Source: Escherichia coli (GTDB taxonomy: Bacteria > Pseudomonadota > Gammaproteobacteria > Enterobacterales > Enterobacteriaceae). From it: a stretch of DNA of 40,009 nt. The stretch lies in NCBI RefSeq assembly GCF_003334765.1, contig NZ_QOWT01000036.1; one strand, given 5' to 3'. The notes under the pieces were generated by a model that was given only the letters and a program-made list of their open reading frames with translations, ran no database searches and was not told the origin of the DNA. The first letter of the stretch is position 1. Each line of letters starts with the position of its first letter. The position numbers and the translations under genes are program-made. Shown piece after piece: positions 20,441 through 23,106 of the stretch.

Positions 20441-20482
20441 ACCCGACAGAATTAGATGAGATTGCAGGAAAACTCGGTTAAC

Positions 20483-20503
20483 GGAGTGATCGAGTTAACA
20501 TTG
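20483..20503. promoter_or_regulatory. Candidate cAMP-CRP site in the cstA promoter region
   Basis: gtgatcgagttaaca (20486-20500) resembles the CRP half-sites TGTGA-N6-TCACA at 4 of 5 and 4 of 5 positions. cstA is known to be CRP-dependent. Confidence 0.35.
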
Positions 20504-20620
20504 TTAAGTTAAATATTGGTTTCAACTCCGATTTACATGGTTGCTGTGTTGTTAAATTGTACAAAGATGTTATAGAAACAAAATGTAACATCTCTATGGA
20601 CACGCACACGGATAACAACT

Positions 20621-22726
20621 ATGAACAAATCAGGGAAATACCTCGTCTGGACAGTGCTCTCTGTAATGGGAGCATTTGCTCTGGGATACATTGCTTTAAA
20701 TCGTGGGGAACAGATCAACGCGCTGTGGATTGTGGTGGCGTCGGTCTGTATCTATCTGATCGCTTACCGTTTTTATGGGCTGTATATCGCCAAAAATGTG
20801 CTGGCGGTTGACCCGACGCGTATGACGCCAGCGGTGCGCCATAACGACGGGCTGGACTATGTGCCGACGGACAAGAAAGTGCTGTTCGGTCACCATTTTG
20901 CGGCCATTGCCGGAGCAGGTCCGCTGGTGGGGCCGGTACTGGCGGCGCAAATGGGCTACCTGCCGGGGATGATCTGGCTGCTCGCTGGGGTGGTTCTCGC
21001 CGGTGCGGTGCAGGATTTCATGGTGCTGTTTGTTTCTACGCGCCGTGACGGTCGCTCGCTGGGTGAGCTGGTCAAAGAAGAGATGGGGCCAACCGCCGGG
21101 GTGATTGCGCTGGTGGCCTGCTTTATGATCATGGTCATTATCCTTGCAGTGCTGGCGATGATCGTGGTGAAAGCCCTGACTCATAGCCCGTGGGGAACAT
21201 ATACCGTTGCGTTCACCATTCCGCTGGCGCTGTTTATGGGGATCTACCTGCGCTATCTGCGTCCGGGGCGTATTGGCGAAGTGTCGGTCATCGGTCTGGT
21301 ATTCCTGATTTTCGCCATTATCTCTGGCGGCTGGGTGGCAGAAAGTCCGACCTGGGCACCGTACTTTGACTTTACCGGCGTGCAGTTGACCTGGATGCTG
21401 GTGGGTTACGGTTTTGTGGCGGCGGTGCTGCCGGTGTGGTTACTGCTGGCCCCGCGTGACTACCTCTCTACCTTCCTGAAAATCGGGACTATCGTCGGTC
21501 TGGCGGTAGGCATTTTGATTATGCGCCCGACGCTGACCATGCCTGCGCTGACCAAATTTGTCGATGGCACTGGCCCGGTATGGACCGGTAACCTGTTCCC
21601 GTTCCTGTTTATCACCATCGCCTGTGGCGCGGTGTCTGGCTTCCATGCGCTGATCTCTTCTGGGACCACGCCGAAGATGCTGGCGAACGAAGGGCAGGCG
21701 TGCTTTATCGGCTACGGTGGGATGTTAATGGAATCCTTCGTGGCGATTATGGCGCTGGTTTCCGCCTGTATCATCGATCCGGGCGTGTATTTTGCCATGA
21801 ACAGCCCGATGGCGGTGCTGGCTCCGGCAGGGACGGCGGATGTGGTCGCTTCTGCCGCGCAGGTGGTGAGTAGCTGGGGCTTTAGCATTACACCAGATAC
21901 GCTAAACCAGATTGCCAGCGAAGTGGGTGAACAGTCGATCATTTCCCGTGCGGGCGGTGCGCCGACGCTGGCGGTGGGGATGGCCTACATTCTGCACGGC
22001 GCGCTGGGCGGCATGATGGATGTGGCGTTCTGGTATCACTTCGCCATTTTGTTTGAAGCACTGTTTATTCTGACGGCGGTGGATGCAGGTACGCGTGCTG
22101 CGCGCTTTATGTTGCAGGATCTGCTGGGCGTGGTGTCTCCTGGCCTGAAGCGGACCGATTCACTGCCTGCTAACCTGCTGGCAACAGCGCTGTGCGTACT
22201 GGCGTGGGGCTACTTCCTCCATCAGGGCGTGGTCGATCCGCTGGGCGGCATTAACACTCTGTGGCCGCTGTTTGGTATTGCCAACCAGATGCTGGCAGGG
22301 ATGGCGCTGATGCTCTGTGCCGTGGTGTTGTTCAAGATGAAACGTCAACGTTACGCCTGGGTGGCGCTGGTACCAACGGCCTGGCTGCTGATTTGTACCC
22401 TGACCGCAGGCTGGCAGAAAGCGTTTAGCCCGGATGCGAAAGTCGGCTTCCTGGCCATTGCTAATAAGTTCCAGGCAATGATCGACAGCGGCAATATTCC
22501 GTCGCAGTATACTGAGTCACAGCTGGCGCAACTGGTGTTCAACAACCGTCTGGATGCCGGGTTAACCATCTTCTTTATGGTGGTCGTGGTGGTTCTGGCA
22601 CTGTTCTCGATTAAGACGGCACTTGCGGCATTGAAAGATCCGAAGCCAACGGCGAAAGAAACGCCGTATGAACCAATGCCGGAAAATGTCGAGGAGATCG
22701 TGGCGCAGGCAAAAGGCGCACACTAA
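20621..22726 (+). CDS. cstA: Carbon starvation protein A, CstA (peptide/pyruvate transporter family, 701 aa)
   Basis: Large polytopic membrane protein; translation matches CstA from MNKSGKYLVWTVLSVMGAFAL to the C-terminal AQAKGAH. Confidence 0.95.
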   Translation: MNKSGKYLVWTVLSVMGAFALGYIALNRGEQINALWIVVASVCIYLIAYRFYGLYIAKNVLAVDPTRMTPAVRHNDGLDYVPTDKKVLFGHHFAAIAGAGPLVGPVLAAQMGYLPGMIWLLAGVVLAGAVQDFMVLFVSTRRDGRSLGELVKEEMGPTAGVIALVACFMIMVIILAVLAMIVVKALTHSPWGTYTVAFTIPLALFMGIYLRYLRPGRIGEVSVIGLVFLIFAIISGGWVAESPTWAPYFDFTGVQLTWMLVGYGFVAAVLPVWLLLAPRDYLSTFLKIGTIVGLAVGILIMRPTLTMPALTKFVDGTGPVWTGNLFPFLFITIACGAVSGFHALISSGTTPKMLANEGQACFIGYGGMLMESFVAIMALVSACIIDPGVYFAMNSPMAVLAPAGTADVVASAAQVVSSWGFSITPDTLNQIASEVGEQSIISRAGGAPTLAVGMAYILHGALGGMMDVAFWYHFAILFEALFILTAVDAGTRAARFMLQDLLGVVSPGLKRTDSLPANLLATALCVLAWGYFLHQGVVDPLGGINTLWPLFGIANQMLAGMALMLCAVVLFKMKRQRYAWVALVPTAWLLICTLTAGWQKAFSPDAKVGFLAIANKFQAMIDSGNIPSQYTESQLAQLVFNNRLDAGLTIFFMVVVVVLALFSIKTALAALKDPKPTAKETPYEPMPENVEEIVAQAKGAH

Positions 22727-22730
22727 AGTC

Positions 22731-22816
22731 AGAGTGAGGGGGGGATGTTGGCGAATGTTGGCTTAGTGCCCAGGGTTCCCTCTCACCCTAACCCTCTCCC
22801 CGGTGGGGCGAGGGGA
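22731..22816. repeat. Second copy (inverted orientation) of the GC-rich palindromic repeat seen at 15305-15406
   Basis: ccctctcaccctaaccctctccccggtggggcgagggg (22777-22814) is close to the reverse complement of 15305-15341. gagtgaggg (22732-22740) can pair with ccctctcac (22778-22786) downstream. Confidence 0.45.
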
Positions 22817-22840
22817 CTGACCGAGCGCGTTGATAGCATT

Positions 22841-22876
22841 TGTAGGCCGGATAAGGCGTTCACGCCGCATCCGGCA
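22841..22876. repeat. REP element between cstA and ybdD
   Basis: tgtaggccggataaggcgttcacgccgcatccggca is almost identical to the REP unit at 908-942. Confidence 0.7.
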
Positions 22877-22908
22877 CTCTTTCAGCAACATGGTTAGCGG
22901 AGGCCAAG

Positions 22909-23106
22909 ATGTTTGATTCACTGGCAAAAGCCGGAAAATATTTAGGTCAGGCGGCGAAGCTGATGATTGGTATGCCTGATTACGACAACTATGTCGAACA
23001 TATGCGGGTTAACCATCCCGATCAAACGCCGATGACCTACGAAGAGTTTTTCCGTGAGCGGCAGGACGCGCGCTACGGTGGAAAAGGCGGCGCGCGCTGC
23101 TGCTAA
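22909..23106 (+). CDS. ybdD: Small DUF466-family protein YbdD (65 aa), the usual partner of CstA-family transporters
   Basis: [52 protein letters not shown]...; ggagg ribosome-binding site 6 nt upstream. Confidence 0.85.

Follow-up and report, generated by a model that had tools for sequence, protein, structure and literature searches.

The 180-bp region between entH and cstA occupies positions 20441–20620 of the window, by which we mean the whole analysed stretch of 40,009 nucleotides. Upstream it is flanked by entH (20027–20440), and downstream by the cstA coding sequence (20621–22726, plus strand), which encodes a pyruvate/proton symporter of 701 amino acids. Both genes match NCBIfam equivalog models with scores above the cut-off. 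Over positions 20300–20800 the sequence agrees with E. coli K-12 MG1655 at 100% identity, and of 5426 complete E. coli genomes 5419 contain this segment. A window coordinate x corresponds to x+609273 in NC_000913.3, so that the cstA ATG is located at 629894. The intergenic region has a G+C content of 36% versus 53% for the window and comprises the promoter of E. coli K-12 cstA together with a short 5'UTR. For comparison, the segment from -260 to +60 around the start codon was aligned for 80 orthologous Enterobacteriaceae cstA loci from more than 25 genera (protein identity 91–99%). Over these 80 orthologues, the mean identity of the intergenic region to E. coli is 0.54.

Downstream of cstA, the cstA–ybdD spacer and ybdD occupy positions 22727–23106. 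A separate ybdD transcription start was mapped at U00096.2 631232, corresponding to window position 22736, which lies 10 nt past the cstA stop codon and gives a UTR of 173 nt (Kim 2012). YbdD is required for CstA-dependent pyruvate uptake (Hwang 2018). The protein (65 amino acids) scores 70 bits against the NCBIfam model 'KCU-star family selenoprotein', for which the cut-off is 85 bits.

Two transcription start sites are available for cstA, only 3 nt apart. Genome-wide mapping placed the start at U00096.2 629081 on the basis of 43 reads, which leaves a UTR of 36 nt (Kim 2012). We located this position via the listed upstream sequence ending in ...GAAACAAAATG; it is the G at 20585. The mRNA modelled in a study of CsrA starts with AATGTAACATC and has its AUG at nucleotide 40, i.e. 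a 39-nt UTR (Leistra 2018), which corresponds to the A at 20582. The start of the CsrA CLIP-seq peak described below coincides with this latter position. With transcription starting at 20582–20585 on the plus strand, the 5'UTR comprises only 36–39 nt (20585–20620 from the mapped start), and the other ~140 bp are mostly untranscribed promoter DNA. The label '180-bp leader', which the sequence-only reading had attached to the region, consequently has to be given up: the 180 bp are the intergenic region. As a separate observation, Atlantibacter hermannii carries an insertion of ~65 nt between the conserved block at the transcription start and the Shine-Dalgarno (SD) sequence, and Franconibacter helveticus has a shorter extension of ~9 nt upstream of cstA. 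Hence, the length of the leader varies across the family.

A consensus scan of positions 20300–20800 found no canonical sigma-70 promoter, and therefore the promoter was assigned from the mapped start sites together with conservation. The -35 hexamer TTGTTA (20549–20554, plus strand) is conserved at 0.99. An extended -10 region, TGtTATAGAAA (20568–20578, plus strand), is recognizable by its conservation and can be read in two registers. In the first, TATAGA (20571–20576) follows a 16-bp spacer, with a TG at -15/-14 of this register; in the second, TAGAAA (20573–20578) follows an 18-bp spacer and covers -12 to -7 relative to the start at 20585. Among the 80 orthologues, the TG at 20568–20569 has an identity of 0.93 and TATAGAAA at 20571–20578 one of 0.88–0.91. 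A promoter this weak and far from consensus fits dependence on an activator.

The activator site lies in the distal part of the promoter. The sequence-only reading had noted a CRP-like site at 20486–20500, and GTGATCGAGTTAACA is found exactly there; the full 16-bp core is AGTGATCGAGTTAACA at 20485–20500 (local context ...cggAGTGATCGAGTTAACAttg...). In comparison with TGTGA-N6-TCACA, AGTGA-TCGAGT-TAACA agrees at 8 of 10 core positions, and with its two mismatches it is a weak match by itself. The 40-kb window holds seven core matches with at most two mismatches, versus 15.5 expected from shuffles. Since such matches are no commoner in the window than in shuffled sequence, the core match alone proves nothing. 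The orthologues provide the additional information: half-site identity is 0.97 for AGTGA and 0.96 for TAACA, versus 0.63 for the 6-nt spacer. At the aligned position all 80 orthologues have at most three core mismatches, and in 57 of them AGTGA and TAACA are retained exactly. Conserved half-sites separated by a free spacer are the pattern that a dimeric CRP site should leave. From the core match, the conservation of the half-sites and the literature we assign a 22-bp cAMP-CRP site to 20482–20503.

The centre of this site (20492.5) is at -92.5 from the start at 20585 and at -89.5 from that at 20582. The former value falls on the activating helical face (-61.5, -71.5, -82.5 or -92.5) and matches the CRP site 'about 80 nucleotides upstream' of the start described by Gasperotti 2020, where the distance is called unusual and an additional factor is considered as possibly needed. 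The same study prints the CRP site within -200 to -120 upstream of the ATG, into which 20485–20500 falls, and reports that deletion of crp abolishes the activity of a PcstA-lux fusion. Moreover, a genomic SELEX experiment with purified cAMP-CRP recovered cstA together with other known CRP targets (Shimada 2011). In the supplement of the Crp ChIP-exo study (Latif 2018), cstA appears only in the transcription-unit table, an entry which is not readable as a binding call. Activation of cstA by cAMP-CRP, as proposed in the sequence-only reading, is thus well founded on the crp deletion, the genomic SELEX and the conserved half-sites.

It could be argued that the CRP-like sequence arose by chance and that cAMP/CRP acts on cstA indirectly or via another site. 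The shuffle counts given above and the large distance from the promoter speak in favour of this view. However, the pattern seen in 80 orthologues is that of a dimer binding TGTGA-N6-TCACA, and the centre falls on a canonical helical phase; the gene was recovered in the SELEX experiment, and the very same site is the one printed as the CRP site by Gasperotti 2020. In addition, no second CRP core with at most two mismatches was found elsewhere in the entH–cstA intergenic region. Accordingly, we regard a chance match as very improbable. The search for a second core also bears on a deoP2-like class III arrangement with a further site near -41.5, which was considered and rejected on the same result. 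It would be uncommon for a CRP site at -92.5 to act by itself.

The Fis pattern GNNNRNNNNNYNNNC is matched twice, at 20468–20482 and 20477–20491; the two matches overlap each other (together 20468–20491) and abut or overlap the left CRP half-site. Fis was captured on the cstA promoter, a fis mutant was ~2-fold de-repressed, and two Fis sites were predicted next to the CRP site (Gasperotti 2020). On pattern and position, the two matches fit these predicted sites. In the same segment, a near-perfect palindrome of 16 bp, ACTCGGTTAACGGAGT (20472–20487), abuts the left CRP half-site and overlaps the Fis-pattern matches; it occurs in Escherichia only.

A further layer of control is probably exerted by ArcA. 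In Park 2013, cstA is one of 74 operons for which direct repression by ArcA is listed, and its expression increases 21.5-fold in an arcA mutant. The corresponding ChIP-seq peak maps to window position 20503, in one replicate only and with a value of 2.6x. The ArcA-P box predicted in that study, AAGTTAAATATTGGTTTCAAC (20506–20526, plus strand), is weak (12.5 bits). Its first direct repeat (DR1) scores 10.0 bits and its second (DR2) 3.0 bits. Other genera keep DR1 as TGTAAAT; DR2 lacks conservation. Table S6 of the same paper places the box at -44 to -24, which implies a transcription start near 20550 and conflicts with Kim 2012 and Leistra 2018; relative to the start of Kim 2012, the box covers -79 to -59.

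Repeats of this type are concentrated in the cstA promoter. In a scan with a single-repeat matrix that we built from Table S4 of Park 2013, excluding the cstA site, a score of 10 bits or more is reached at only 11 of 80,000 window positions, of which five lie within 20501–20591. Dinucleotide shuffles of the 180 bp contain 0.36 such repeats on average versus the five observed, a number reached in none of 1000 shuffles. The cluster of ArcA-type TGTTAA repeats spans 20492–20592, and its members coincide with the -35 element, the -10 region and the transcription start. The best ArcA-type repeat of the window (12.0 bits) is at the -35 hexamer. A strong pair at the required centre-to-centre spacing of 11 bp was not found in this cluster; the only 11-bp pair is the one of 10.0 and 3.0 bits. 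The best-conserved pair is on the minus strand (20591–20572) and has a spacing of 10 bp. Footprinting of ArcA showed that a 12-bp spacing is not tolerated at putP. A canonical ArcA box as the full explanation of the conserved block at the transcription start was therefore rejected, since the conserved repeats are 10 bp apart and not 11.

On the mRNA, a GGA-containing sequence directly before the start codon was proposed as a target of CsrA, and such a sequence, acacggataacaact, is indeed present at 20606–20620, followed by the ATG at 20621. Between 20582 and 20670 four GGA motifs are found, at -23, -11, +14 and +29 relative to the ATG, all on the plus strand. The first, in AUGGA (20597–20601, a putative CsrA site), is present in only 20 of 81 orthologous sequences. 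The second, in ACGGA (20608–20612, with GGA at 20610–20612, i.e. -11 to -9), is both Shine-Dalgarno element and CsrA site and is kept in 79 of 81. The third, in AGGGA (20632–20636, +12 to +16, codons 4–6), is likewise a putative CsrA site, and its GGA at +14 is retained in 80 of 81. The fourth, CUGGA (20647–20651, +27 to +31), belongs to a secondary type of CsrA site; here TGGA is found in 23 of 81. From this distribution, the motifs at -23 and +29 are lineage-specific, and the GGAs of the SD and at +14 form the conserved core.

All four motifs are located inside the in vivo CsrA CLIP-seq peak_65 of Potts 2017 (U00096.3 629855–629942, window 20583–20669, plus strand), which covers -38 to +49 of the start codon. 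A legend in the supplement of that study describes four CsrA sites on the cstA transcript, one of them on the SD at -11 to -9, and a ribosome-blocking mechanism. We infer that these four published sites, whose footprints are known from secondary citations, are the four GGA motifs found here. In Kulkarni 2014, cstA is named as one of the targets that have several sites around the SD, and CTGGA, a secondary type of site, is credited to the cstA study. Repression by CsrA at the cstA ribosome-binding site, which the sequence-only reading had assumed, agrees with the CLIP-seq peak, the published SD site and the conserved SD GGA.

The site at +14 is of particular value, because it lies in the coding sequence. 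For its Gly5 codon (20633–20635), the printed classes, which cover all 81 Enterobacteriaceae sequences, show only GGG or GGA; GGC and GGT do not occur. As this GGA is kept by a restricted choice of synonymous codons, SD function is no explanation for it. The synonymous constraint fits a CsrA site within the coding sequence. The conserved GGAs at -11 and +14 are 24 nt apart, on either side of the AUG. Reportedly, one CsrA dimer can bridge 10–63 nt, and the spacing of the GGAs around the SD is compatible with such bridging.

In an alternative explanation, the GGA before the ATG would be a Shine-Dalgarno element and nothing else, with control by CsrA being exerted elsewhere or indirectly. Ribosome binding alone would conserve any SD-like GGA, and in the data of Potts 2017 cstA changed in ribosome footprints only, with translation efficiency remaining unchanged. 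Against this stand the CLIP-seq peak over exactly the same segment, the published description of four sites including the SD together with ribosome blocking, and the second GGA at +14 with its restricted codon choice. We give this explanation hardly any credence and retain direct repression by CsrA at the ribosome-binding site.

The expectation that the AT-rich leader might carry further regulatory structure did not hold. The fold of 20585–20665 has a free energy of -9.9 kcal/mol versus a shuffle mean of -12.8 kcal/mol (z = +1.02), i.e. it is less stable than shuffled sequence. For 20 genera, RNAalifold yielded -3.2 kcal/mol and a covariation term of -0.06, and it left the UTR unpaired. A search of Rfam with E values up to 1 returned only a chance match (E = 0.63) on the other strand, inside entH. 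The additional conserved elements of the region are DNA sites, namely the -35 and -10 elements, the block at the transcription start and the ArcA- and Fis-type sites. Neither the single-sequence fold nor RNAalifold presented a GGA in a hairpin loop at cstA. Such a loop is typical, although not obligatory, for mRNAs repressed by CsrA. According to published remarks the cstA CsrA sites lie outside stem-loops, which agrees with our folding results.

Inverted repeats are present in the DNA at 20557–20573/20612–20628 and 20565–20572/20586–20593. As hairpins that sequester the AUG in the RNA, inverted repeats I1 and I3 were rejected, because their left arms are upstream of the transcription start and are not conserved. 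A possible complementarity of 7 nt between Spot 42 and AACAUCU is not convincing. The idea that the whole 180 bp are transcribed as a structured leader (riboswitch, attenuator or sRNA target) with AT-rich regulatory RNA structure can draw on the long inverted repeats and on conceivable read-through from the ent operon, as a scan of 20300–20800 predicted no terminator after entH, but it is practically discounted by a start site that leaves just 36–39 nt, by repeat arms that are untranscribed and poorly conserved, by the folding, covariation and Rfam results and by the published location of the CsrA sites outside stem-loops. The leader is thus best described as short and unstructured.

A nearly invariant block of 14 bp, ACAAAATGTAACAT (20578–20591), spans -7 to +7 and has a mean identity of 0.95; no other part of the intergenic region, the -10 region included, is conserved as well. 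Within the block lies the palindromic TGTAACAT (20584–20591; TGTTACAT on the opposite strand), and in either orientation TGTWACAW is matched exactly. The motif TGTAACAT is retained in 67 of 80 orthologues. In the 40-kb window TGTWACAW occurs once versus 4.4 occurrences expected by chance. As the motif is thus commoner by chance than observed, its position and conservation have to carry the argument. GAAACA at 20575 is situated 10 bp upstream of GTAACA at 20585, which results in a tandem repeat. A spacing of 10 bp is typical of OmpR half-sites, and we take the repeat to be similar to ompC C1.

TGTWACAW is over-represented in OmpR ChIP-seq peaks and is required for binding of OmpR at tviA (Perkins 2013). 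The main text of that paper mentions cstA zero times, and an OmpR ChIP peak at cstA is not reported. In Salmonella ompR mutants, cstA (STM0600/t2268) is up 11.5-fold in Typhimurium and 2.7-fold in Typhi. This de-repression may be indirect; many of the genes de-repressed together with cstA are CRP-dependent. On motif, spacing and conservation, we tentatively propose that the block is a previously undescribed operator for OmpR or another response regulator of the OmpR/PhoB family, an assignment that we consider possible but still doubtful. Binding across the tandem repeat from -10 to +7 would occlude RNA polymerase. If the proposal is correct, the de-repression of cstA in Salmonella ompR mutants would be a direct effect, and osmolarity or acid stress would have an input to pyruvate uptake across Enterobacteriaceae. 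An operator at this position would also explain a published expression effect that has lacked an explanation, and could supply the suspected 'second factor' at the promoter.

Other regulators were compared with the same segment. TGTTAtAGAA and ATGTAACA (20568–20591) bear a loose resemblance to DeoR operator half-sites. Of the consensus sequences of DeoR, CpxR, RstA, PhoP, TyrR and PdhR, none agrees convincingly with the block. In a DNA-capture experiment DeoR was ~2-fold enriched on the cstA promoter, and deletion of deoR was without effect on expression (Gasperotti 2020).

Taken together, it is highly probable that cstA is controlled through a short unstructured leader, a distal CRP site, an SD that is blocked by CsrA, and additional layers of Fis and ArcA. 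In the mechanism that we propose, transcription would start at 20582–20585 from a weak sigma-70 promoter composed of TTGTTA, a 16–18-bp spacer and TG-n-TATAGAAA. This promoter would depend on cAMP-CRP bound at AGTGATCGAGTTAACA in a distal position of the class-I type, which shares its helical face with -61.5 and from where CRP presumably contacts the alpha-CTD of RNA polymerase. During fast growth Fis would repress via the sites that overlap the left CRP half-site, and under anaerobic conditions ArcA would do so via the TGTTAA-type repeats that are spread between the CRP site and the transcription start. On the transcript, CsrA dimers would bind the GGAs at -23 and -11 in the leader and at +14 and +29 in the first codons. 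Since the GGA at -11 belongs to the Shine-Dalgarno sequence, CsrA bound there would block binding of the 30S subunit and thereby repress translation.

Activation by CRP and repression by CsrA are already known for exactly the locus examined here. This part of the analysis is a re-identification of textbook cstA regulation and adds nothing new. Of the sequence-only reading, the CRP activator site and CsrA at the ribosome-binding site stand, both on the literature and on the comparative analysis, whereas the 180-bp leader and its structure do not withstand the mapped start sites, the folding and the Rfam search. What the analysis fixes is the anatomy of the region, with an unstructured leader of 36–39 nt and CRP at -92.5. 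The phylogenetic footprint further indicates selection across Enterobacteriaceae on the CRP half-sites, the -35 element, the SD GGA and the GGA at +14. The invariant block at the transcription start with its OmpR-type motif is the one point with some forward value.

The closest counterpart of the region is the published control region of E. coli K-12 cstA itself (Schultz & Matin 1991; Dubey 2003; Gasperotti 2020; Potts 2017), with which it shares locus, sequence, CRP site, CsrA site on the SD and Fis sites. The sequence shows no differences; only the earlier '180-bp leader' label departs from the UTR of 36–39 nt. Among CRP-dependent promoters, cstA resembles the distal class-I type with sites at -92.5/-93.5 (position classes of Latif 2018), which likewise combines one CRP dimer site on the -61.5 face, a weak sigma-70 promoter and strict dependence on crp. 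It differs from the class III arrangement of deoP2, where a site at -93.5 is paired with one at -41.5 and with CytR, by having no second CRP core. With ArcA-P repressed promoters that contain multiple repeats (Park 2013), cstA has in common the dense TGTTAA repeats and the strong anaerobic de-repression in an arcA mutant; those promoters use a spacing of 11 bp, whereas cstA has no strong 11-bp pair. A comparison with the TGTWACAW sites of OmpR (Perkins 2013) reveals the same exact motif, the GAAACA 10 bp upstream and the de-repression in ompR mutants of Salmonella; the OmpR sites are supported by ChIP-seq, in contrast to cstA, for which none is reported. High-affinity CsrA sites of the SELEX type are located in hairpin loops, and the cstA sites are not presented in this way. 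In its post-transcriptional control cstA corresponds to glgC, pgaA and its paralogue btsT/yjiY, in which GGAs over the SD and in the early coding sequence, at a spacing that allows bridging by a CsrA dimer, are likewise associated with a block of the ribosome.
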